NCBI GenBank assembly: GCA_963705505.1
Contig: CAVPJU010000003.1
Span: forward strand, 160,001-224,000
Length of the DNA: 64,000 bases
Direction: 5' to 3'
DNA from: an uncultured bacterium
GTDB taxonomy: Bacteria > Desulfobacterota_D > UBA1144 > Nemesobacterales > UBA2774
Positions 37,264 to 52,881 of this stretch are shown here, one piece after another (within the stretch, counting starts at the first letter, position 1; each line of letters starts with the position of its first letter). A program made the position numbers and the translations under genes. The notes under the pieces are model-generated. The model made no database searches and was not told the origin of the DNA. It worked only from the letters and a program-made list of their open reading frames with translations.

Positions 37264-37440
37264 GCTCACACGAACAGCCCGGTCGTAAAAATATACCCCG
37301 ATTAAAACGGTTCTCAATGTTTTGATACCCGAATTATAGATATCCGCCTCAAAAGACCGTATCGGAGCGCGTAAGTCCATTGTTTTTAGGCGGCGTGTGT
37401 TGTAATATGAGTTTCTCTGATGGCGCAAGGAGGCTCTCAA

Positions 37441-38424
37441 ATGGCTACACTGGTTACAGGGGCTACGGGTTTCTTGGGCTCCCACATCGCAAGGAAGCTC
37501 GCCGAGAGGGGAGACAAGGTAAGGATACTCCTCAGAAAAACCAGCAACACTATAAATATAGACAACATAAACGCCGAGAGGGTTTACGGCGATGTAACCG
37601 ATATAGACTCCATCAGGAAAGCCCTCGAGGGCTGCGACACACTCTACCATACGGCGGGGGTCGTATCGTTCAAGCAGGCCGATTATAAAAAGATGGATGA
37701 TATAAACGTAAAAGGCACCAATAACGTATTTACGGCCGCGATGGAAGCCGGTGTGAAAAAAGCCGTATATACGAGCAGCGTGGCGGCGATCGGGCTTAAA
37801 CCGGGGAGGGAGCCGGCTGACGAAGAGACACCGTTTGACCCCGCAAGCACGGATATCCGGTACATAAAATCCAAATACTACGCCGAGCAGGAAGCTCTTA
37901 AATTTTTCGAGAAGGGCCTTCCGCTGGTGATCGTTAACCCGTCGATCGTGATAGGGGCGGGAGATGTTTACGTCTCGACCTCGGGGATAATTCTCTGGTA
38001 CTGCAAGAGGAGGCTCCCCGGCTACACGGACGGAGGCATAAACCTTGTGGACGCCGAGGACGTGGCCCGGGGACACCTGTTGGCGGCCGAGAAAGGGAGA
38101 CTGGGGGAGCGCTACATACTGAGCAACCGGAATATAACCATAAAAGAGCTGTTCGAAGTGCTCGAGAAGGTCACGGGGATTCCGAGGCCTAAAATGAAGA
38201 TACCCTACACTCTCGCTTACATAGGCGCGTTTATCGCTGAGCGCATATTCGGCATATCCGCGCCCAACTATGTGGCAATGGACATAGACTCAATAAAGGG
38301 GTCAAAGCACTACTGGTATTTCGATAATTCAAAGGCGGTCAGGGAACTCGGCTTCTCTCCGAGGCCGCTTGAAGAAACGATAGAAAGCACAGTAAAGTGG
38401 TTCAAGGAAAACGGCTACCTCTGA
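37441..38424 (+). CDS. Extended SDR, NAD-dependent epimerase / dihydroflavonol-reductase-like (HpnA-like)
   Basis: TGATGFLG, YTSS, YIKSK (YxxxK), GERYIL; AGGAGG SD before ATG 37441. Confidence 0.9.
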   Translation: MATLVTGATGFLGSHIARKLAERGDKVRILLRKTSNTINIDNINAERVYGDVTDIDSIRKALEGCDTLYHTAGVVSFKQADYKKMDDINVKGTNNVFTAAMEAGVKKAVYTSSVAAIGLKPGREPADEETPFDPASTDIRYIKSKYYAEQEALKFFEKGLPLVIVNPSIVIGAGDVYVSTSGIILWYCKRRLPGYTDGGINLVDAEDVARGHLLAAEKGRLGERYILSNRNITIKELFEVLEKVTGIPRPKMKIPYTLAYIGAFIAERIFGISAPNYVAMDIDSIKGSKHYWYFDNSKAVRELGFSPRPLEETIESTVKWFKENGYL

Positions 38425-38444
38425 TTTTGGACGCACGCCTTTAT

Positions 38445-38473
38445 TTGAAACGACTTTCCCGTTAATATAGAAT
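38445..38473 (+). promoter_or_regulatory. sigma70-type promoter directly abutting the aroC start codon
   Basis: TTGAAA-N17-TAGAAT, ending 6 nt before ATG. Confidence 0.55.
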
Positions 38474-38479
38474 CTTCCT

Positions 38480-39550
38480 ATGCCCGGAAACTCATTCGGA
38501 AATCTCTTTCGTATAACGACCTGGGGGGAATCCCACGGCCTGGCTCTCGGCGTCGTCATAGACGGGTGCCCCGCGGGGCTCGATATATCGCGTGACGATA
38601 TACAGTCGGAGCTCGACCGCAGGCGTCCCGGACAGAGCAAGATAACCACGCAGAGGAAAGAGTCGGACAGCGTCGAGATCCTATCGGGAATATTCGAGGG
38701 GAAGACTCTGGGGACTCCCATATCGCTCGTTGTCAGGAACGAGGACGTAATATCCAAATCGTACGAGGACATAAAAGACACGTACCGTCCGGGGCACGCC
38801 GATTACACCTACGACGCAAAATTCGGCATAAGGGATTACAGGGGCGGAGGCAGGTCCTCCGCAAGGGAAACCGTCGGAAGGGTGGCTGCGGGAGCGATCG
38901 CAAAGAAGATTCTGAATATGCAGGGCATTAAAACATACGGGTTTGTGAGACAGGTAGGGAAGATCGTCGCCCGGAAAATAGACCTCGACGAGATAGAGAA
39001 GAACATCGTAAGATGCCCCGACGCCGAGAAGGCGATTGAGATGATAGAGCTCATAGAAAAGGTGAGGCGTGAAGGAGATTCGGTAGGAGGCACGGTCGAA
39101 GTCGTATCGAAGGGTCTTCCGCCGGGACTCGGAAGCCCCGTATTCAATAAGCTCGACGCGGACCTCGCTTCGGCGCTCATGAGCCTGGGGGGCATCAGGG
39201 GGTTCGAGGTAGGCATGGGTTTCGAAGCGTCTAAAAGGAAAGGGTCTCAGGTCAATGACGTAATGTATAAGGACAAATCCGGAAAGCTCAGATACAAAAC
39301 CAATAACGCGGGCGGCCTCTTGGGCGGGATCACGAACGGCGAGGACCTCGTCGTGAGGATAGCCATCAAGCCGACGTCTTCGATCTCCAAGACTCAGCAC
39401 ACGGTCGATAAATACGGGAACCCGAAAGAGCTCAAGGTCAAGGGGAGGCACGATCCGTGTCTCTGCCCGAGAGCGGTGCCCATCGCCGAAGCGATGGTCA
39501 ACCTCGTTCTCGCGGACCACCTGCTAATGTCGAGAGTCGCGCGAATTTAA
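38480..39550 (+). CDS. aroC: Chorismate synthase
   Basis: GESHG, RPGHAD, RSSARET, GRHDPC. Confidence 0.99.
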   Translation: MPGNSFGNLFRITTWGESHGLALGVVIDGCPAGLDISRDDIQSELDRRRPGQSKITTQRKESDSVEILSGIFEGKTLGTPISLVVRNEDVISKSYEDIKDTYRPGHADYTYDAKFGIRDYRGGGRSSARETVGRVAAGAIAKKILNMQGIKTYGFVRQVGKIVARKIDLDEIEKNIVRCPDAEKAIEMIELIEKVRREGDSVGGTVEVVSKGLPPGLGSPVFNKLDADLASALMSLGGIRGFEVGMGFEASKRKGSQVNDVMYKDKSGKLRYKTNNAGGLLGGITNGEDLVVRIAIKPTSSISKTQHTVDKYGNPKELKVKGRHDPCLCPRAVPIAEAMVNLVLADHLLMSRVARI

Positions 39551-39902
39551 ACCCGCTCGCAACAGCCCGTCAGTTAAAATATATTCATATACAACTATCC
39601 AGTCCGCTCATCCGCGTGTAACACTTCTTAATAATCGTCGATATGCCCGGCCTGAAGTAAAGTCTTCTTTTTCCACGACTTGTAATATTCGGGTAAAATA
39701 TTTGCGGGGTTATTAACTGATTTAATTAGATATAATCAGCACCGGATAACTGGTTACGGCACGTACTTAATAAAGTACGATTGAGGTGAGCAGGATTATA
39801 TCTCATTATAGTTAATTATATTTTTCAATATTCTTCCCCCGGTTTTATATAACCTATTGAAACAAAAAACAAATTGCACTAAAATTGCAAAAAGGGGTAG
39901 TA

Positions 39903-40000
39903 TCCTTCCGAAATGGCAAACTATCCGAAAGGGTAGGACGCAAAGCCTCAAGCCTAAGGACTTGCCAAGTGCTGTCTATGGCGGTTGGGTTGCCGAAGAT
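39903..40000 (+). promoter_or_regulatory. Cyclic di-GMP-I (GEMM) riboswitch aptamer
   Basis: GGCAAAC-TATCC-GAAA-GGGTA-GGACGCAAAG (P2 with GAAA tetraloop); P3 carries a canonical 11-nt receptor (CCTAAG 39953-39958, TATGG 39977-39981); ends GGGTTGCCGAA. Confidence 0.93.
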
Positions 40001-40114
40001 GAGTTACTTGCAATAATTCTAATATTCGAGGATAATTATAAATGAGCTGTAAACGATAACCTTAGCTATATTAAAGTATATTGCTAAAATTTGCTTTCAG
40101 GGAGGGGAACGATA

Positions 40115-42874
40115 ATGGGGATAATAATCAGGGAGAAGAAAGACCGGAGAGGACACGAAAGAATCCCCGTAAATTTTATCGTTTATTCCAGAAACACGGG
40201 AAAGGTGATGGGACAGGCAAGGGACCTTTCATCGAGAGGACTCTTTATACAAACGGAAGATGAATACGAACCGGGGACTAAACTCCTCCTCGAGTGCGAT
40301 CTCTCGGGCGCGCATCCGGTTAAAGCTTACTGCGAGGTCAGGAGATTCGAATCGAACGGAACCGGAGCGCACGGAATCGGGGTCGAATTCATAAACCTCT
40401 ACGAATCCGACAGGACCAAGCTGCTGAACTATATAGAGAGCAGTAAGAACAAACTCAATTCCGACGACTATTATTTATCCGATTTTAATGACATACCCGA
40501 CGATGACCTGTTTAAAAAGGCCGAGGTCTTCTGGCAATACAAACTGGACATGGAATCGAAGGGATACATAAGGTACAGAAGACCCCTTGCGTCGCCCTCC
40601 GCGCATAAAGTGATCATCGACGACGATTTCACGGGAAAGAAAAAAGAGATGATCATGATGGGGAGCAACAACTACCTTGGCCTCACTTCCCATCCGAAGG
40701 TAATCAAAATTGCAAAAGAAAAAATCGACAAATACGGCGCCGGAGCAGGGTCCGTCCCGCTCCTTGCCGGGACTTTCGACATACACAGACAGCTCGAGAT
40801 AAAACTCGCTGAGCTAAAAGGGTGTGAGGACGCGATCATATTCCCGAGCGGCTACGTAACTAATCTCGGATGCATACAGGCCCTCGTTAAGAACGAGGAC
40901 CTGGCCGTTATAGACAGGCTCGCCCACGCCAGCATCATCGACGGCTGTATGCTGTCCTCGGGGACGTTCAGGACGTTCAAGCATTCAGACGTCGACAGTC
41001 TCGAAAACGTGCTGAAGAGGAACCGTGACAACTTTAAAGGCAAGCTTGTAATCATAGACGGCGTCTATAGTATGGACGGGGACATAGCTCCCCTTCGTCA
41101 GATCACGGAGACCGCTCACAGGTACGGCGCCAAGATAATGGTCGATGAGGCTCACGCCACCGGTGTCATAGGGGATAAGGGAAGAGGAACGCCGAGCCAC
41201 TTCAAAATGAAGCCGGGCGAGGTAGATATAGTCATGGGGACACTGAGCAAATCCCTGGGCGGCATTGGCGGATTCATAGCCTCGACGAAAGAGGTCGTAA
41301 ACTATCTCAGGTACTATACGAGATCCTTCTTCTTTTCATCCAATTTCCCCCCTTCTGTCGCGGCCTCCGTGCTCGCCGCAATCGAGGTGATGGAGACGGA
41401 CAACTCGCTTCAGAAAAGCCTCTGGAGCAATATCAAATATATGAAGGAAAACCTGAAATCGATGGGATTTAAAACGGAACAGACAGAGTCCGCGATAATT
41501 CCCGTCATTATAGGGGACGAGCTCACTCAGAAAAAGATGAGCAGGAGATTCCACGAAGCCGGCATATATGTAAACGCGATCCCCCACCCCGCAGTGCCCA
41601 AAGGGCAGGAAAGGTTCAGGTTCAGCCTGATGGCTACTCACACGCGCGAGGACCTGGACAGGACGCTCGAAGTAGTCGAAAGCCTGGGAAGGGAATTCGG
41701 AATTATAGACAAGCCGGTTTCATTAAGCGTCCCCGAGGGTCAAAAATACACCGTGAAAGAGGTCTCCTCGAAGGAAGACATCGAAAATTCAGTCAGGTTC
41801 TCATGGAAAGTGTACAAGGACTATCCGGCATGGGTGCCCTATTTCCTGATAAAGGACCACGTAAAACTGATTTCGAACGATTACTTTTACTTCAGAAAGG
41901 TTTACGGAAAGAGGATCGTCGTCGAGGAGAACGGGGAGATAATCGGCACGGTAAGCGCATTCATAGATAATTATTACAACCGCTACCACGACACGAAAGT
42001 CGGATTCCTCGGGTTTTTCGAAGCCCTCCCGGACAAAGAAGAAGCAATAAGCCTTCTGCTGGATAGAGCCGAGGAATTTCTCGTAAGAGAGGGATGTACG
42101 GAACTGCAAGGGCCCGTGAACGGAATTTTCGGAATCTTCGGGGGCGGCCTGCTTTCGAGCAACTACGGCAAAATACCGTCATTCCTGCAGGTGTACACCC
42201 AGCCCTACTACCATGACTACTTCACGAATGCGGGATTCAGTCCGGTCAAAAAACTGCTCCATTACACCATAGACCTCAAATCACCCGACAACGTGAACGC
42301 GATAATGAAATACTCGCGGGAATCGTTGCCGCCGGATATAAAAATCAGGCAGATCAACAAATCCGATTGGGACAGAGAGGTACGGAGCGTCGTCAGAATT
42401 TTCAATGATTCCCTCGCTCATCTCTGGGGCAATGTTCCCTTCGATGCAGACGAATTCATAGAGTTCGCGGATGAGTTCAAGAGTCTGATCGTTCCCGACT
42501 ACTGGCTTATTGCAGAATCCGGCGGCGAAGCGATAGGCTTCATAGGGGGATTCCCGCAATACGCTTCCGTATTCAGGGGTTTAAACGGAGAGATCAAGCC
42601 ACACAAGCTGGTAACGCTGCCCCTCCAGTTGAGAGGCATCAAGGAAGGCGTTTTAATGATCATGGGTCTGCTGGACGAATATAAGGGAATGAGAATCGGC
42701 ACTATTCTCCTCAGCAAAGTCTGTGAGGCGATGATCGGGAACGGGTATGAAAAGGTGGCCGGCACATGGGTTCTGGAAGACAACTTAGGCTCGCGGCGTA
42801 TCGTGGAGAACCTGGGCGGAAAGGTCGACCTGCACTGGGAGATGTATTCAAAAATTCCGGCAATGAGTGAATAA
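40115..42874 (+). CDS. PilZ / PLP alpha-oxoamine synthase (SPT/AONS-like) / tandem-GNAT (bCerS-like) fusion protein
   Basis: PilZ RGHER and DLSSRG; AOS motifs SNNYLGL, HASIIDG, YSMDGD, DEAH, GTLSKS; GNAT part W.P, GFLGFFE, GPVN, PYY, IFND..WG.VP, WVLEDN; GGAGG SD before ATG 40115. Confidence 0.88.
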   Translation: MGIIIREKKDRRGHERIPVNFIVYSRNTGKVMGQARDLSSRGLFIQTEDEYEPGTKLLLECDLSGAHPVKAYCEVRRFESNGTGAHGIGVEFINLYESDRTKLLNYIESSKNKLNSDDYYLSDFNDIPDDDLFKKAEVFWQYKLDMESKGYIRYRRPLASPSAHKVIIDDDFTGKKKEMIMMGSNNYLGLTSHPKVIKIAKEKIDKYGAGAGSVPLLAGTFDIHRQLEIKLAELKGCEDAIIFPSGYVTNLGCIQALVKNEDLAVIDRLAHASIIDGCMLSSGTFRTFKHSDVDSLENVLKRNRDNFKGKLVIIDGVYSMDGDIAPLRQITETAHRYGAKIMVDEAHATGVIGDKGRGTPSHFKMKPGEVDIVMGTLSKSLGGIGGFIASTKEVVNYLRYYTRSFFFSSNFPPSVAASVLAAIEVMETDNSLQKSLWSNIKYMKENLKSMGFKTEQTESAIIPVIIGDELTQKKMSRRFHEAGIYVNAIPHPAVPKGQERFRFSLMATHTREDLDRTLEVVESLGREFGIIDKPVSLSVPEGQKYTVKEVSSKEDIENSVRFSWKVYKDYPAWVPYFLIKDHVKLISNDYFYFRKVYGKRIVVEENGEIIGTVSAFIDNYYNRYHDTKVGFLGFFEALPDKEEAISLLLDRAEEFLVREGCTELQGPVNGIFGIFGGGLLSSNYGKIPSFLQVYTQPYYHDYFTNAGFSPVKKLLHYTIDLKSPDNVNAIMKYSRESLPPDIKIRQINKSDWDREVRSVVRIFNDSLAHLWGNVPFDADEFIEFADEFKSLIVPDYWLIAESGGEAIGFIGGFPQYASVFRGLNGEIKPHKLVTLPLQLRGIKEGVLMIMGLLDEYKGMRIGTILLSKVCEAMIGNGYEKVAGTWVLEDNLGSRRIVENLGGKVDLHWEMYSKIPAMSE

Positions 42875-42878
42875 ACAA

Positions 42879-45452
42879 ATGATTGACAGACAATTGTCCA
42901 TGTCGGAAGGGAACGGAACGAACATCCAGAAATCGATATTCAGTATTGTTGCGTTCGTTCTGCTCCTCTTCTGCATAGGGAATTTCCTATTAGGTCTCAA
43001 CAGGGTGAACAAACCCTACCCCGGATTTTTCTTCTATAAAAACCTCGTCATAACAGATATATCGCCGAAAACAGTCAACGGCGAGATGCTGAAAAGGTTT
43101 AAGGATAAATTAAAGGCAGTAAACGGTATACCTGTCAGAATCCCCGATGACGTATTTGAAATAATCGACAAAATCCCCGTGGGATCCCAAGTGGAATACA
43201 CGATACAGAGAAACAGTGATACATTCAGCGTTACCATCCCGATAGAGAAATTAGCACTAAAAGAGATGCTTCTCCTATTCGGAATCATATATGTGATAGG
43301 CATCGTGTTCCTTATCATCGGCGTGATGGTTCTTCAAAAGAAGCCTTACCTGAAGGCCAGTAAGGCGTTTTTCCTCTTCTGTGCTTCGATATGCGTATGG
43401 TTTGTCGGATCGTTCGACGCACAGGCTGTCTATTTATTCGACCAGCTGAGCTTCTTTTCCTGGATCTTCTGCCCGCTATTCGGAATATATCTGATGTTTA
43501 TTTTCCCGTCCGATACCAAACTGAAGGGAATGACGCACAATTTGGTGTCGATATTGTTTTTATTTATTTCAGCTATGCTTTTCGTTCTTCAGTTCATTTT
43601 CTTCTACAACTATGAAATATGGAAATACGTTAATACCGTAAGCTGGATTTACGTAGTCCTTAGCACCGTGATTTTCCCCATCTCTTCGCTCATGACCTAC
43701 ATGAATCCGTCGTCGGCGCTTGAAAAACAACGCGCGCAGATAATATTACTCGGCTGCATTTTCGGCTTGCTTGCCCCGGCTTCGGTGGTAGGCTGCATCA
43801 CGGTCTTTAAAATAAGCATGCCGTATAACCTGATGGCTCTCCCCGTGATAATTTTTCCCGTGTCCATCGCATACGCCATAGTAAAGCATAAGCTCTTCGA
43901 CATAGACGTAATCATAGAAAAGGCACTCACGTACGGACTCCTCACCGGAGCCGTGGGAGGCATCTTCGCACTCACGGTCCTGGGCTTCAACGTCGCCTTC
44001 GCCAAATACGGCGGATGGAAGAACCCGGCTTTCTTCGTTATCCTTAGCGGATTCCTAGTCATCGCCCTCAACCCCCTCAAGAACCGGATACAGGACCTAG
44101 TCGACCTGACATTTTTCAGAAAGAAGTACGATTACAGGGGGACGGTGGAGGAAGTGAGCTACGCCATGACGTCGCTCTTAAGCCTCGACAAGATAGTCGA
44201 TAAGATCATCGACATAGTCGAGAGCACCATGTTTTCAACTCCTGTCTCCGTATCCATATACAATCAGGACCTCGGAGCCTATGAGCAGTATTTGAAAGAA
44301 GGGGATATCCAAAGCCCGCCCGATATGACCGTCACTGAGGACAACATTCTGGTACAGCACCTTAATTATCACGGAAAGGAAATCTTCAGGGAAGACCTGA
44401 TTGCCGATGAGAGGTATATCCGCAACTCTCAGAAGCTTATGAGCGAGTTCGAGAGGTTCAATGCATCGCTTTTCATACCGCTCTTTTTCAAGAAGCAGCT
44501 GATAGGGTTCATCGCGCTCGGAGAAAAAAAGTCCGGGCTCTCCTACACGTCGCGCGACGTGATGCTGCTTAAGCTTCTTGCGAACCAGAGCGCGATAGCG
44601 ATCGAAAACGCCCTCGCATTCAAACTCGTCGAAGATTATGCGAAGAAGCTCGAAAAAACCAATAAGGAGCTCAAAGACGCGCAGACACAGCTCGTGCACG
44701 CGGAAAAGATGTCAGCGATCGGGCAGCTTGCCGCGGGCGTGGCCCACGAGATAAGGAACCCCTTAAACATAATCGAGGGGGCAAGGTACTACATATCCAC
44801 TTATATGATGGATAAAGAAAACACGGAGGTCGTCGGGGAATACCTCGATTATATAAAACACGAGGTGGACAGGACAAACAGGCTGATAGACAGCCTGCTC
44901 AAGTTCTCAAAAGCCGAACCGCCCTATTTCGAGAGTGTCAATATCAACAACGTACTCGAGAACGTCGTAATACTCGTACGGAAGCAGCTATCGGACAACA
45001 ATATAAATCTTGCTGTGAGGTTCGACGAAAACATCCCTCAGATCATGGCGGACCCGAACCAGCTCTGGCAGGTATTCATCAATATTATATTAAACGCCAT
45101 ACAGGCGATGCCAAAGGGCGGGGACATGACCATAGAGACTTCGACCAGGTGGGACGAATTCGCGAGCAGTGATAACCACCACATATACATACATTTCAAG
45201 GACACAGGCGTGGGAATAGACAAAAAAGATATCACGAAGATCTTCGATCCGTTTTTTACGAAAAAGGATATGGGAACCGGACTCGGACTCTCAATCGCCT
45301 ATAAGATTATAGAAAAACACCAAGGCAGAATAATAGTGGAGAGTGAGAAAGGGGCCGGGACAATATTTACGATTGAACTTCCATCAAATAACTATAATAT
45401 TACTGCGGGAGAGGAAGATGCCGAACACAAGGAAACGGGTGCTGGTTGTTGA
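42879..45452 (+). CDS. Membrane sensor histidine kinase (PDZ-like, multi-TM, GAF, HisKA, HATPase)
   Basis: DKLKAVNGIPV...GSQVEYTIQR (PDZ-like); many TM segments ending YAIVKHKLFD; GAF (LANQSAIAIEN); AHEIRNPL; N/G1/F/G2 boxes. Confidence 0.9.
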   Translation: MIDRQLSMSEGNGTNIQKSIFSIVAFVLLLFCIGNFLLGLNRVNKPYPGFFFYKNLVITDISPKTVNGEMLKRFKDKLKAVNGIPVRIPDDVFEIIDKIPVGSQVEYTIQRNSDTFSVTIPIEKLALKEMLLLFGIIYVIGIVFLIIGVMVLQKKPYLKASKAFFLFCASICVWFVGSFDAQAVYLFDQLSFFSWIFCPLFGIYLMFIFPSDTKLKGMTHNLVSILFLFISAMLFVLQFIFFYNYEIWKYVNTVSWIYVVLSTVIFPISSLMTYMNPSSALEKQRAQIILLGCIFGLLAPASVVGCITVFKISMPYNLMALPVIIFPVSIAYAIVKHKLFDIDVIIEKALTYGLLTGAVGGIFALTVLGFNVAFAKYGGWKNPAFFVILSGFLVIALNPLKNRIQDLVDLTFFRKKYDYRGTVEEVSYAMTSLLSLDKIVDKIIDIVESTMFSTPVSVSIYNQDLGAYEQYLKEGDIQSPPDMTVTEDNILVQHLNYHGKEIFREDLIADERYIRNSQKLMSEFERFNASLFIPLFFKKQLIGFIALGEKKSGLSYTSRDVMLLKLLANQSAIAIENALAFKLVEDYAKKLEKTNKELKDAQTQLVHAEKMSAIGQLAAGVAHEIRNPLNIIEGARYYISTYMMDKENTEVVGEYLDYIKHEVDRTNRLIDSLLKFSKAEPPYFESVNINNVLENVVILVRKQLSDNNINLAVRFDENIPQIMADPNQLWQVFINIILNAIQAMPKGGDMTIETSTRWDEFASSDNHHIYIHFKDTGVGIDKKDITKIFDPFFTKKDMGTGLGLSIAYKIIEKHQGRIIVESEKGAGTIFTIELPSNNYNITAGEEDAEHKETGAGC

Positions 45453-47334
45453 CGACGAACAGCTCATACTCAAAATCATATCCGATATACTGACCAAGGA
45501 AGGATATGAGGTCATAGTCGCCAATAACTGCGAGAAGGCCGCAGAATACCTGAGGTCGTCTAATTTTAACGTGGTACTCTCGGATATAAAGATGCCCGTA
45601 AAAAGCGGCATAGACCTTCTTGAAGAAATCAAGAAGAAGGACCCAAATATCCCTGTCATCCTTATGACGGGTTTCGCCTCCCTCGAAACCGCCGTCGAGG
45701 CCGTCCAGAACGGAGCGTTCGATTATCTTATTAAACCGCTCGATTACGGCAAGCTCAAAAGCGTTATCGAACATGCCGCCGACAGGTACGAGCTCTACAG
45801 GGAGAACACGCGCCTGCTCAGCGATCTCAAAGAGCTGAACACCAACCTCGAGTTAAAGGTCAAAGAAAGGAACAGGCAGCTTGAGAACACCCTCAACAGC
45901 ACCATAGAAAGCATAATCACGACGGACAGGGACCTGACAATAGAGACTGCAAACCCGAAGTCTTCCGAAATATTCGGCAGGAACTGCGTAGGGGAGAAAC
46001 TGAGCCTTTTATTTCAAGGGATCAACTTCGATACAATAATTCCCAAAATCCTGAGTGATCCGTCGTATTCGACGAAACACGAAGTAAGGCACGACAATAA
46101 GTTCCTCGAAGTGACCCTTTCTCCTCTGATCGACTTCGAGACGAAAGAGATATTCGGAGTGATAGCCGCGACAGAAGATATAACGGAGAAGAAGAAACTC
46201 GAAGCTCAGCTCATACACTCCGCAAAGATGTCGGGCGTAGGCCAGCTGGCTGCGGGAGTCGCGCACGAATTCAACAACATTCTGTCGGGCATTATAGGCT
46301 ATACCAGCCTCGCGCTCACGAGACAGGACTTGGACAGCGCCAGGAAAGACCTGAAAGTCATCGAGAAGGCCTCGGACAGGGCGGTCGAAATAGTAAACAA
46401 GCTCCTTTCCTTCTCGAGGCAGAAAGGGGAGAAATTCCAGGTAGCGCAGATCGAGAGCGTCATAGACGACGCGCTCGGCCTGGTCGAACACACTTTCGAG
46501 ACCGAGGGCATAAGGATACTCAGGAGCTACGAGAAGGTCCCCGCTATAAGAATGAACCTGGGAGAGTTGCAGCAGGTTTTCCTCAATCTGGCGATAAATT
46601 CGAAACACGCCATGCCCCAGGGCGGCGCCATAGCCATCAGCACGAAGCTCGCCGGGAATTATGTAAGAATCGACTTCTCCGATACTGGAGTGGGCATCCC
46701 CCCTGAAAACCTGTCGAGGATATTCGAGCCGTTTTTTACGACAAAACTGAGCGAAGGCACAAAATCCGGCACGGGCCTCGGGCTATCGGTTATCTATGCG
46801 ATCATTGAAAGGCACGGCGGCCGCATCGATGTCTCAAGCGAGGTCAATAGAGGCACGACGTTCACGATCCTCCTCCCCAATATTCAGGCGGTTTCGAAGA
46901 CCCCGGAAGCGGAGCCGGCACAGAAAAGCCAGAACGGTAAAGTAATCGAGCTAAGGCGCAAAGGGAACGTCCTGATCGTCGACGACGAGGAATTCATCAG
47001 AGACATAGTGAGCGAATGCCTGTCGAGCACGGGGCACAATGTGATGACTGCAGGAAGCAGCGACCAGGCGATCGAGCTCATAAAAAAGAATCATTTCGAC
47101 ATCACGTTCCTTGATTTTTCCATGCCCAATAAAAGCGGCCTCGAGCTCCTCAGGGAAATAAAGGTCATAGACCCCAACTCCACAGTGGTCATTATCAGCT
47201 CAAGGCCCGAGGAGCAGCTCCCGGACGAGCTTTCGGACGAGGGTTCTTACAATATCATTAAGAAACCGTTCTCGGTGGACCAGATACAAAACGCGGTCTC
47301 CAGGGTTCTGGGGGCGGAGGCGATGAGCAGATAA
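45418..47334 (+). CDS. Cytoplasmic hybrid kinase REC-PAS-HisKA-HATPase-REC
   Basis: VDDE/SDIKMP/KP; PAS-like segment ending EDITEKK; AHEFNNIL; GTGLGL; C-terminal VDDE/LDFSMP/KP; overlaps the upstream kinase gene. Confidence 0.9.
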   Translation: MPNTRKRVLVVDDEQLILKIISDILTKEGYEVIVANNCEKAAEYLRSSNFNVVLSDIKMPVKSGIDLLEEIKKKDPNIPVILMTGFASLETAVEAVQNGAFDYLIKPLDYGKLKSVIEHAADRYELYRENTRLLSDLKELNTNLELKVKERNRQLENTLNSTIESIITTDRDLTIETANPKSSEIFGRNCVGEKLSLLFQGINFDTIIPKILSDPSYSTKHEVRHDNKFLEVTLSPLIDFETKEIFGVIAATEDITEKKKLEAQLIHSAKMSGVGQLAAGVAHEFNNILSGIIGYTSLALTRQDLDSARKDLKVIEKASDRAVEIVNKLLSFSRQKGEKFQVAQIESVIDDALGLVEHTFETEGIRILRSYEKVPAIRMNLGELQQVFLNLAINSKHAMPQGGAIAISTKLAGNYVRIDFSDTGVGIPPENLSRIFEPFFTTKLSEGTKSGTGLGLSVIYAIIERHGGRIDVSSEVNRGTTFTILLPNIQAVSKTPEAEPAQKSQNGKVIELRRKGNVLIVDDEEFIRDIVSECLSSTGHNVMTAGSSDQAIELIKKNHFDITFLDFSMPNKSGLELLREIKVIDPNSTVVIISSRPEEQLPDELSDEGSYNIIKKPFSVDQIQNAVSRVLGAEAMSR

Positions 47335-47350: not shown

Positions 47351-47713
47351 ATGGAAGAGTTTTCCCGTTTTTACTGTAAAATATTCGTGAATGAAAACGA
47401 GATATATTCCGGTGACCTCGGAGAGGTCCCCGAAAGGCTCAGGAAGGGAATGATCCGCGACTTAAGCGAATGGGCGGGCTCTCTCGGCAAGAGGGGCCTG
47501 AATGAACTAATTTATTCACACCTCGCCTGGTATGAGGAGAAAGGGACGTATTGCGAGACTTGCGGGGCATGGGCAAAGGACGATGACGGCGGGGAATGCG
47601 GGGAGTGCGGGCAAAAGTTCGGGGAGCGTTATATCCACGAGCGGAACAAGAGGCTCGATATGATTATTACATGCGTGGGAATGATTTCGAGCGTGCGAAT
47701 TTCGGAAATCTGA
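47351..47713 (+). CDS. Hypothetical protein with CxxC...CxxC zinc-ribbon
   Basis: CETC...CGEC; 120 aa; starts 16 nt after the hybrid kinase. Confidence 0.65.
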   Translation: MEEFSRFYCKIFVNENEIYSGDLGEVPERLRKGMIRDLSEWAGSLGKRGLNELIYSHLAWYEEKGTYCETCGAWAKDDDGGECGECGQKFGERYIHERNKRLDMIITCVGMISSVRISEI

Positions 47714-47786: not shown

Positions 47787-48092
47787 ATGAAGCTGATTGT
47801 CAGAGGACAGATATTCCCGAAGGTATGGGAGATCGCAGAGGGCGTCAGGAAATTAAGAGAGGACAGAAAACCCGTTAACATAGGAGCGGGGACAGTCGGC
47901 TTCCCAGTCTATGAAGTCGAGCTTCCGGACGATACCAGAAAAGAGGGTTTATACTTTATTACTCCTCAGGGCATAAGACTCTATTTCTATCCCGGCGATC
48001 AGTATCAGATCGGATATCTGATCTCCGAGATCGACCGCGATCACTTGACCGAAAAACATTTTAAAGATACGGTCCATAACACGCCCTCCTGA
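47787..48092 (+). CDS. Hypothetical protein
   Basis: 101-aa ORF with GAGGT SD. Confidence 0.6.
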   Translation: MKLIVRGQIFPKVWEIAEGVRKLREDRKPVNIGAGTVGFPVYEVELPDDTRKEGLYFITPQGIRLYFYPGDQYQIGYLISEIDRDHLTEKHFKDTVHNTPS

Positions 48093-48154
48093 GAATTCCG
48101 ACCCCGGCAAGCGGCTTTTGACTCCCAACCGGGGTGTATGTATTTTTATTTCAG

Positions 48155-51512: not shown

Positions 51513-51770
51513 TTTTTGAGTCTCCTCTGCATTGATGTTCTTTCGGTATCTGATAAAGCTGACTGTGAAATCTTTCTATGCCCCCGCAAACACCCTTAGC
51601 TCACCGGTCCCGCCGGACTAAAATTCGCTAATTTATCCCGTAACAAACTCTTGTGATACAAACAGGTTTAAAACCATAAGAATTTACCCAAAGCTGCGGA
51701 TAATTCAACTGTCCTTGCTTTTGAACCCTCAAACCTTATATTATTTGCATATCTATAACGGGAGTACGAC

Positions 51771-52881
51771 ATGTTCGGAGAAAATAAAGAGCAGATACAG
51801 GAGCTTAAGAAGAGACTGGTAGTACTCGGAGACTTTCTTTGACCTCCCCGGGAAAAAATCACGTCTTAAGGAACTCGAAGAGCTGACAGGCAAGCAGGGG
51901 TTCTGGGATAATGCCGACCGGGCGCAGGAAATCTTAAAGGAGCAGGCACGGATCAAAAGCGCTATCGACGGCTGGCAGAGGCTCTCCCGAGAGCTCGAGG
52001 ACGCGGAAGTCCTGGAGGAGCTGTCCCTCGAAGAAGAAAATGAGGAAGCCGCCCTGGAAGCCAGGGAAAAGCTGTCAGAAATACAGAACCAGGTCGAGAA
52101 CCTCGAATTCAAAAGGATTCTGGGGGAGCCCGATGACGAGAGAAACGCAATCGTATCGATAAACGCAGGCGCGGGCGGCACCGAGGCGCAGGACTGGGCG
52201 GAGATGCTCCTAAGGATGTATCTGAGGTACGCCGAGCTTAACGATTATACGACCGAGATGATCGAGTACTCGGAAGGGGACGAAGCCGGCATGAAGAGCG
52301 CAACGTTCCTCGTAAAAGGGGATTACGCGTTCGGCTATCTCAAGGGCGAGAGCGGAGTACACAGGCTGGTCAGGATTTCCCCGTTCGACGCCAATAAGAG
52401 AAGGCACACGTCGTTCGCATCCGTTTTCGTTTCTCCGGAAATCGACGAGAGCATAGAGGTCGATATTGAGGAAAAAGATTTGAGGGTGGATACCTACCGG
52501 GCGAGCGGGGCCGGCGGGCAGCACGTAAACAAGACCGATTCCGCGATAAGGATAACCCACTTCCCGACGGGGATAGTCGTAAGCTGTCAGAACGAACGCT
52601 CCCAGCATCAGAACCGGGCTACGGCGATGAAGGTACTGAAGGCAAGGCTCTACGAGCTCGAAAAGGAAAAACAGCAGGAAAAAATAGACGAGCTGCACTC
52701 GACGAAAAAGGAGATCGGATGGGGGAGCCAGATCCGTTCCTACGTGCTCCATCCGTACAGAATGATCAAGGACCACAGGACAGGGTACGAGACCGGAAAT
52801 GTCGAGCCCGTTTTGGACGGAGACCTGAGCGAATTCATAAAGAGCTATCTTCTTATGCACTCGGGTGAAAAAAAGGTATGA
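51771..52881 (+). CDS. prfB: Peptide chain release factor 2 (programmed +1 frameshift)
   Basis: 23-codon leader ORF ends CTT-TGA-C (51837-51843); +1 frame continues DLPGKK...FWDN...GGTEAQDW...SPF...GGQ. Confidence 0.98.

Follow-up and report, generated by a model that had tools for sequence, protein, structure and literature searches.

A c-di-GMP riboswitch, a PilZ-oxoamine synthase fusion and two sensor kinases in an uncultured bacterium: a possible signalling module with an exchangeable specificity cassette

Introduction

In alpha-hydroxyketone quorum sensing, represented by CqsA/CqsS of Vibrio and LqsA/LqsS of Legionella, an enzyme of the alpha-oxoamine synthase (AOS) family is encoded beside a polytopic kinase, the signal passes through a phosphorelay with receivers, and the product is a lipid-like molecule derived from an amino ketone. 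Here, we analyzed 64,000 nucleotides of an uncultured bacterium (Desulfobacterota_D, Nemesobacterales; assembly GCA_963705505.1, contig CAVPJU010000003.1, positions 160,001 to 224,000; hereafter the window), in which a cyclic diguanylate (c-di-GMP) riboswitch precedes a gene fusing a PilZ domain, an AOS domain and a tandem-GNAT N-acyltransferase, followed by the genes of a membrane sensor histidine kinase (memHK) and a hybrid kinase (hybHK). As in the two known systems, the AOS-family gene adjoins the gene of a polytopic membrane sensor kinase, here in 34 of 35 genomes. Unlike CqsA, the synthase is flanked by a PilZ domain at its N terminus and a tandem GNAT at its C terminus; unlike CqsS, the sensor combines a PDZ-like domain, about eight transmembrane (TM) helices and a GAF domain, and a second, hybrid kinase is present. 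The c-di-GMP riboswitch and the apparent exchange of synthase and input domain as a cassette further distinguish the locus from CqsA/CqsS.

Other described systems share single features with this locus. It is known that c-di-GMP gates polysaccharide synthases, motility and adhesins. In BcsA and Alg44, a PilZ domain with the motifs RxxxR and D/NxSxxG sits on, or partners, a biosynthetic enzyme, and c-di-GMP licenses the product. The fusion resembles them in having a PilZ domain with both motifs attached to a biosynthetic enzyme, but the partner is a soluble pyridoxal phosphate (PLP)-dependent enzyme forming C-C bonds rather than a membrane glycosyltransferase, and an RNA sensor is present in the leader as well. 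In agrBDC and comQXP of Gram-positive bacteria, a hypervariable block covers the signal genes and the input of the receptor kinase, the kinase core is conserved, and the types differ among close relatives. Here too, synthase and receptor input diverge while the kinase core and the downstream genes are conserved; in contrast to those peptide signals, the signal would be a small amino ketone or lipid, and its types are inferred from sequence alone.

For the bacterial ceramide pathway (Spt, bCerS and CerR in Caulobacter), two reports give AOS condensation followed by N-acylation of the keto intermediate as the proposed order (PMC11087976, PMC11324152). The fusion likewise joins condensation and N-acylation, a likeness in the order of steps, and related AOS and tandem-GNAT pairs of other phyla lie in sphingolipid-like clusters. 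Because condensation is joined directly to N-acylation, the fusion is relevant to the dispute over the sequence of reactions in bacterial ceramide synthesis. Unlike Spt-bCerS-CerR, the locus does not reach the Spt cut-offs, has no reductase in the operon, can dispense with the GNAT in 10 genomes, and has links to kinases and c-di-GMP. As in the Vc2 GEMM-I riboswitch (PMC6140456), a full aptamer with G at the position equivalent to G20 is found in a 5' leader; unlike in Vc2, the downstream gene encodes a cytoplasmic enzyme with its own c-di-GMP receptor domain, and the expression platform has no recognizable terminator. A full-text literature search covering main papers turned up neither a PilZ-AOS enzyme nor an oxoamine synthase controlled by c-di-GMP.

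Conservation of the locus and joint exchange of synthase and sensor input

We would give about even chances to reading the locus as a module for small-molecule signalling licensed by c-di-GMP, in which a synthase/receptor pair carries an exchangeable specificity cassette. The idea of a signal synthase and its receptor derives from three features taken together: the core is conserved, the tailoring step varies, and synthase and receptor input were exchanged jointly.

The phylum set comprised 120 genomes, 42 of which had the memHK input domain and 35 a PilZ-AOS. In 34 of these 35 genomes memHK was located downstream of PilZ-AOS on the same strand at a distance of at most 3.4 kb; the exception, G021, was split by contig ends. 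Of 46 metagenome contigs with a relative of the sensor (identity 33% or higher), 11 were too short and 35 informative; an AOS was found upstream of the sensor in 27 of the 46. Linkage in 34 of 35 genomes and 27 of the 35 informative contigs argues that the arrangement is not due to chance. In addition, the fusion was immediately preceded by the riboswitch in 17 of 20 loci scanned in the genomes of 60 relatives (the other three were cut by contig ends), and the aptamer retained its position before the operon over a range of protein identities from 95% to 48%. Thus, homologous fusions elsewhere are linked to memHK and to a riboswitch, as would be expected of the single system proposed in the initial annotation. 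Its placement of the riboswitch before the fusion gene holds for the window and these 17 relatives, whereas in some other relatives the riboswitch sits behind PilZ-AOS. On the other hand, its view that the operon had been inserted after aroC has to be revised, because the order of aroC and cassette is conserved across several families.

The core of (PilZ-)AOS, memHK and hybHK was kept in six families of the phylum. In genus g2 of the window's family, AOS, sensor and GNAT were not found in any of the 10 genomes. A PilZ domain, a riboswitch or both were present in 34 of the 35 AOS-carrying genomes, the remaining locus (G067) being cut by a contig end. Both occurred in the window's family, G056 and G066, and a riboswitch only, before an AOS lacking PilZ, in G052. 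In G059, G063, G065 and three contigs (L167, L168 and L177), PilZ-AOS was followed by a riboswitch before the tailoring or kinase genes, and eight genomes had PilZ without a riboswitch.

A comparison of the window with G006, a member of the same genus (g1), revealed 83-87% nucleotide identity over positions 37600-39400, 49-61% over 40300-43900 and 81-96% from 43900 onwards; two other genus-mates were 70-91% identical to the window throughout. The divergent block consists of the fusion gene and approximately the first 340 residues of memHK, and ends just before a conserved helix, FP(L/V)SIAYAIVKHKLFDID. It includes the variable input module of memHK (42879-43900, + strand), exchanged with the synthase, in which nucleotide identity to G006 was 49-56% versus 81-96% downstream. 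An independent second case was found in genus g18, where G046 and G054 were 82% identical over aroC and again from about residue 287 of memHK through hybHK. Between these flanks only 570 nt of AOS could be aligned (66% identity), and one genome had a methyltransferase gene and the other an unknown gene of 619 aa. The right-hand boundary is shared with the g1 exchange. It appears that on two occasions, each within one genus, a block was exchanged that comprised the synthase, the tailoring gene and the N-terminal 290-340 residues of memHK. In both genera the pattern is pherotype-like, in that synthase and receptor input lie in a divergent block whose flanks are conserved between close relatives.

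Phylogenetic trees of the sensor (residues 21-345), AOS and GNAT agreed with each other, whereas those of the memHK core (residues 441-850) and hybHK followed taxonomy. The six rows of the window's family formed a clade with a support of 100 for the memHK core and for hybHK; in approximately unbiased (AU) tests their monophyly was rejected for the sensor (log-likelihood difference 139, p-AU 1e-55) and for AOS (185, p-AU 5e-6). Methyltransferase-adjacent sensors from two families clustered together (support 91-93). In the AOS tree of 92 rows (ten rows with internal stops were dropped and seven near-identical rows of the window's family thinned), the kinase-linked AOS formed one clade (Shimodaira-Hasegawa-like approximate likelihood ratio 94), and G006 from the window's genus and G011 from its family grouped with fused forms of another family. 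Eleven of the 12 other-phyla AOS adjoining a tandem GNAT were placed in a separate clade (support 99) beside a BioF-like group that included the bioF paralog of the window's own genome; the twelfth, L052, stood apart on a long branch. The AOS nearest to the kinase-linked clade (L009, L021 and L070) had no Pfam PilZ match and occurred in mixed contexts. It had been suggested at the outset that a phosphorelay may respond to the product, and the fact that synthase and kinase input were exchanged jointly speaks in favour of this suggestion.

The PilZ-AOS-GNAT fusion enzyme

The fusion gene (40115-42874, + strand; open reading frame (ORF) 40091-42874) encodes 919 aa and likely starts at the ATG at 40115 behind GGGAGGGG, 117 nt from the aptamer end. 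Its PilZ domain (40142-40438, +) scored 53.5 bits against a cut-off of 22.5 for PF07238 in Pfam and 58.2 bits at the same coordinates in a further scan. The motifs RxxxR (R12 and R16) and D/NxSxxG (S39 and G42), on which the initial annotation had relied, were confirmed, and these four residues were invariant in 22 of 22 aligned fusions. Both motifs were also present in 13 of 17 further PilZ-AOS proteins. The PLP-dependent AOS domain (40646-41674, +) matched Aminotran_1_2 with 195.4 bits (Pfam); the PLP lysine K379 in TLSKSLGG and D344/H347 of the conserved DEAHATG were invariant in the 22 aligned fusions.

Among solved structures, the closest relatives of the AOS domain were Thermus AOS/Kbl (7poa, E 2.8e-87), Sphingobacterium Spt (3a2b, 4.9e-85) and Escherichia coli Kbl (1fc4, 1.8e-82), and more distant sequence matches in PDB included BioF (~1e-63) and CqsA (5e-34). 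The scores against curated NCBI equivalog models were 402.5 bits for Kbl (cut-off 460), 396.8 for BioF (426.45), 385.2 for Spt (640) and 287.7 for ALAS (338.55). The CqsA-type model NF005526 gave 201.9 bits versus a cut-off of 428, and, considering also the E-value of CqsA structures relative to that of the top match, the enzyme differs from CqsA and LqsA in not being their ortholog. Since no equivalog cut-off was reached, the AOS represents a separate subfamily, which judging from these matches is Kbl/Spt-like and not CqsA-like.

The C-terminal 374 residues (41750-42871, +) had no sequence match in PDB, and Acetyltransf_1 (49.8 bits, Pfam) was found in the C-terminal half of this region. Its AlphaFold2 model (mean pLDDT 89.9, pTM 0.87) was compared with known structures using Foldseek, which revealed two GNAT folds in one chain, so that the single GNAT initially annotated should be replaced by a tandem GNAT. 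The best structural matches were 5kf1 (E 1.9e-17, TM-scores 0.62/0.72), 7q3a, 2wpw and 1ozp; they include a glucosamine N-acetyltransferase (5kf1), MAB_4324, a clavulanate tandem GNAT and MshD. No NCBIfam model matched the tandem-GNAT domain, and a protein-atlas search returned only generic GNAT clusters for it. Among 120 clusters listed, 37 were PilZ-AOS(-GNAT) proteins of 882-954 aa and more than 40 were PilZ-AOS proteins of ~530-575 aa. An initial scan of genome contigs retrieved mostly generic AOS, with the complete fusion in 1 of 80 loci. Different fusions on this type of AOS were also noticed, including REC-AOS proteins in metagenome-assembled genomes (MAGs) labelled Eremiobacterota and Armatimonadota and one PilZ-AOS-FemAB-like (PF04339) protein (P0085, P0093, P0096 and P0072).

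Variable tailoring genes

The tandem GNAT family was identified in 28 of the 120 genomes, always at this locus except for one weak fragment in G042, which was located on a contig other than that of the sensor fragment of that genome. It was not found in 10 of the 35 genomes retaining AOS, memHK and hybHK. The GNAT is an accessory and not, as originally thought, a core part. In GNAT-less genomes, the position between AOS and memHK was occupied by an S-adenosylmethionine-dependent methyltransferase (G054 and G063), an OleD-like reductase of the 3-beta-hydroxysteroid dehydrogenase/epimerase type (G036 and G064) or a Zn-dependent alcohol dehydrogenase (G065), or nothing was inserted (G046, G059, G070 and G044). 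The best match of the reductases in G036 and G064 was OleD, a long-chain 3-oxo reductase. In other phyla, AOS and tandem-GNAT gene pairs adjoin genes for sulfotransferase, fatty-acid hydroxylase, short-chain dehydrogenase/reductase (SDR), PAP2_3, accC and cytidylyltransferase.

A gene for a REC-HD-GYP phosphodiesterase is located just upstream of the locus in G044, G064, G065 and G068, together with a GGDEF gene in G068. The genome containing the window has an orthologous REC-HD-GYP protein with 56% identity, encoded 80 kb from the operon (C3:119844-120911).

Sensor kinases and downstream genes

Pfam scans confirmed both kinases, in addition to the PilZ, AOS and GNAT domains. The memHK gene (42879-45452, +) encodes a first TM helix, a periplasmic PDZ-like domain, about eight TM helices and GAF, HisKA and HATPase domains. 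Its ATG at 42879 lies 4 nt past the stop codon of the fusion at 42874; if translation began instead at a GTG at 42867, the two genes would share 8 nt. The gene of hybHK (45418-47334, +; REC-PAS-HisKA-HATPase-REC), with a likely ATG at 45418, overlaps memHK by 35 nt; all coordinates and spacings given in the initial annotation were reproduced. The phospho-acceptor His and Asp contexts are recognizable in both kinases. The model of the memHK input (residues 1-436, pLDDT 75) consists of one TM helix, a periplasmic beta domain and approximately eight further TM helices. Foldseek matched the periplasmic domain to PDZ domains of DegS/HtrA; the TM bundle had weak matches to 7TM receptors (TM-scores 0.25-0.48), and no specific sensor family could be named. 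Domain scans revealed no DNA-binding regulator encoded in the operon.

Two small ORFs follow: one of 120 aa with two CxxC pairs (47351-47713, +), beginning 16 nt after hybHK, and one of 101 aa (47787-48092, +), beginning 73 nt after the former. A family search returned no match for either, and both are co-located with the operon in most relatives. A terminator-like hairpin past the last small ORF (48121-48135, +) was detected by pattern scan only, and such sites were not enriched in the region (14 found versus 10.6 +/- 3.3 in shuffles). Eight contigs (L173, L183, L184, L186, L187, L188, L193 and L194) carried a reduced variant, in which aroC is followed by a memHK homolog (input 40-44% identical), orf120 and DUF192; no AOS and no hybrid kinase were found in them, and no riboswitch in the seven that were scanned.

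Riboswitch and leader

The c-di-GMP-I (GEMM-I) aptamer (39905-39997, +) matched the covariance model RF01051 over positions 1-87 of 87 with 78.8 bits (gathering score 35, E 8.1e-14) and was the sole Rfam match in the whole window. The initial annotation had placed it about 115 nt upstream of the fusion, which agrees with the distance of 117 nt between its end and the ATG. The base at 39915, directly 5' of the GC-AAAC element, is G, as in 15 of 15 aligned orthologous leaders; we take it to be equivalent to G20 of Vc2, a mapping onto the model column that depends on the Vc2 numbering. This position separates c-di-GMP from cyclic GMP-AMP (cGAMP) aptamers, cGAMP-sensing GEMM-Ib carrying A there (PMC6140456).

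A promoter-like sequence, TTGAAA-17-TAAAAT (39857-39885, +; 10 of 12 consensus matches), lies ~20 nt upstream of the aptamer, and its hexamers are kept in orthologous leaders. Since 15 promoter-like sites were found in the region versus 9.5 +/- 3.2 in shuffles, the promoter scan is weak when taken alone. A second such site, TTGCAA-17-GATAAT (40008-40036, +), follows the aptamer ahead of the start codon and is likewise conserved. The leader or expression platform (39998-40114, +) is AT-rich and strongly conserved in sequence, and holds the Shine-Dalgarno (SD) sequence GGGAGGGG. In single-sequence folds, the SD paired with a CU-rich tract 5' of the aptamer in three of eight leaders. That this tract, which adjoins the aptamer, could mask the ribosome-binding site is a weak idea.

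The genome containing the window has 10 GEMM-I aptamers, five GGDEF proteins and only two PilZ proteins. The weakest of the 10 matches (C1:152752-152838, outside the window; 42.5 bits) precedes a pilM-like gene; it has ACACAAAC in place of the GGCAAAC of the other nine, and its position for ligand contact may therefore be different. In a related fusion, the leader aptamer (L159:3020-3115) scored 66.6 bits with RF03167 (c-di-GMP-I-GGC), above its RF01051 score, and its binding-site motifs look canonical by eye.

Proposed mechanism and alternative explanations

In the mechanism that we propose, c-di-GMP would act on the mRNA via the GEMM-I aptamer, possibly switching expression on by freeing the ribosome-binding site, and also on the protein via the N-terminal PilZ domain. 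The AOS domain would condense an amino acid and an acyl thioester to an alpha-amino ketone, which the fused tandem GNAT would N-acylate at once to yield an N-acyl amino ketone. This product or a derivative of it would then be read by the PDZ and multi-TM input module of memHK, which would signal with hybHK. The presence of REC-HD-GYP genes upstream in four relatives suggests feedback on c-di-GMP. The product would probably be lipid-like and may resemble an oxo-ceramide; a lipid-like chain length is suggested by the contexts of AOS and tandem GNAT in other phyla and by the OleD-like reductases within the locus. Compared with a known AOS-type autoinducer synthase and its cognate membrane kinase, three features would be new: gating by c-di-GMP at two levels, a tandem GNAT fused to the synthase, and a specificity cassette that can be exchanged.

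If this is true, a PilZ-bearing PLP enzyme behind a c-di-GMP riboswitch would tie production of a lipid-like small molecule to the messenger of the sessile state. If memHK reads the product, the state of an intracellular second messenger would be joined to cell-cell signalling, and the split into specificity types seen among peptide pheromones would extend to small-molecule systems. The two natural cassettes, type A in the window and type B in the genus-mate, would offer a built-in specificity control. A stronger version is tentative and in our opinion somewhat doubtful: a c-di-GMP-licensed quorum-sensing or kin-recognition system in an uncultivated phylum resembling the Deltaproteobacteria, with an N-acyl amino-ketone signal (oxo-ceramide-like) made only at high c-di-GMP, a PDZ/multi-TM reader, interchangeable pherotype cassettes of synthase, tailoring enzyme and receptor input, receiver-only eavesdroppers in which the AOS is missing or its PLP lysine replaced, and REC-HD-GYP feedback of the phosphorelay on c-di-GMP.

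It should be noted that several observations weigh against a signalling module. The periplasmic PDZ-like domain could read envelope peptides instead of the product. Neighbouring stretches of DNA can be exchanged together by hitch-hiking, with no functional tie; the genomes are MAGs, whose contigs could in principle be chimeric; and the AU tests used taxonomic groups, yet these were tested after a tree had been seen. The PilZ motifs are degenerate in 4 of the 17 further PilZ-AOS proteins, and the AOS remains below every curated NCBI equivalog cut-off tested (Kbl, BioF, Spt, ALAS and CqsA-type). Moreover, in 8 of the 46 metagenome contigs aroC is directly upstream of memHK, with neither AOS nor hybHK; in the PilZ-AOS of G063 (L145:6900-8552), the PLP lysine is replaced by His (GTLSHALGG); and G048 (L148:7729-10184) has a riboswitch, a methyltransferase and memHK without AOS. 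G063 and G048 look like receivers lacking a working local synthase, and, together with the AOS-less contigs, they argue that memHK does not always depend on one. With regard to the proposed switch, no intrinsic terminator was found in the leader, and RNAalifold on 15 leaders recovered only the aptamer helices, without a conserved switch helix or a consensus structure of the platform. The CU-rich tract was the best SD partner by duplex energy in only 6 of 15 leaders, and the anti-SD pairing failed in genus g4, where 37-75 of ~180 windows were equally good. Finally, the conserved promoter-like site at 40008-40036 sits 3' of the aptamer.

The last point, together with the failure to find a terminator or a conserved switching helix, would also fit a riboswitch that is irrelevant to the operon, with transcription starting at the 40008-40036 site, or one that senses cGAMP like GEMM-Ib. 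We consider this very improbable, given that the aptamer keeps its place before the operon down to 48% protein identity and is present in G052, where PilZ is absent; cGAMP sensing is further opposed by the G in all 15 leaders, cGAMP aptamers carrying A at the G20-equivalent position (PMC6140456). A different alternative concerns the products of the operon. The fusion might be a pair of Spt-like and ceramide-synthase-like activities making a structural membrane lipid of the oxo-ceramide type at high c-di-GMP, in sessile or biofilm cells, while the kinases monitor the envelope through PDZ and are co-expressed only through a shared c-di-GMP regulon. Such lipid remodelling would account for the joining of condensation and N-acylation, the two steps of the ceramide pathway, for the rank of Spt 3a2b among the best sequence matches (E 4.9e-85 against a top value of 2.8e-87), for the resemblance of the periplasmic domain to DegS/HtrA PDZ and for the PAP2_3, fatty-acid hydroxylase, sulfotransferase, SDR and HpnA-like reductase genes that accompany AOS and tandem-GNAT pairs in other phyla. 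We nevertheless regard it as unlikely. A bulk two-chain lipid would not tolerate the loss of the N-acyltransferase, which is missing in 10 of 35 genomes with AOS and kinases, and the tailoring genes vary (methyltransferase, reductase, alcohol dehydrogenase or none). The Spt cut-off is far off (385 versus 640 bits), the window's AOS falls outside the clade of GNAT-adjacent AOS from other phyla, and the operon has no reductase, the epimerase encoded two genes upstream being HpnA-like. The sensor input, too, co-varies with the synthase.

This co-variation also bears on a reversed order of events, in which the two kinases respond to a cue from outside or from the envelope and thereby adjust the level of c-di-GMP, for example via REC-HD-GYP; c-di-GMP would then gate the enzyme, and the product would not be fed back. 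The REC-HD-GYP genes just upstream in G044, G064, G065 and G068 (with GGDEF in G068), the 56% identical protein encoded 80 kb away in the window's own genome, the lack of a DNA-binding regulator in the operon and the contigs that carry memHK without AOS all agree with kinases acting upstream. However, this leaves unexplained why the sensor input was twice independently replaced together with the synthase and tailoring gene while the transmitter stayed, and why sensor clades track the type of tailoring enzyme, and we consider it quite improbable.

Neighbouring genes and other observations

The epimerase gene upstream of the operon (37420-38424, +) was tried as a candidate CerR and rejected: its product is HpnA-like (346 bits versus a cut-off of 367.65), and aroC lies between it and the operon. 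This HpnA-like epimerase/reductase gene is kept beside aroC across the order and is probably unrelated to the operon. No reductase gene was found in the operon of the window.

Outside the window's family, a conserved protein family of ~600-680 aa is encoded directly upstream of PilZ-AOS (L136:10415-12460, L138:6464-8323, L135:7689-9488 and relatives). Its members are 47-64% identical and had only weak matches, to TIGR04551 (82.9 bits, cut-off 300) and Alginate_exp; the genome containing the window has only distant paralogs (C6:443158-444752 and C3:19878-21128). In two Elusimicrobia loci (L026:11381-12990 and L027:7166-8779), separate AOS and tandem-GNAT genes are followed by genes for an HD_5 (HD-GYP-like) protein and a stand-alone receiver; these HD_5 neighbours hint at a c-di-GMP link for the AOS/tandem-GNAT pair in another phylum. 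Elsewhere in the window, the release factor 2 gene (51770-52881, +) has the usual programmed +1 frameshift, frame 0 ending with ...LGDFL-stop and the +1 frame continuing with DLPGKK...

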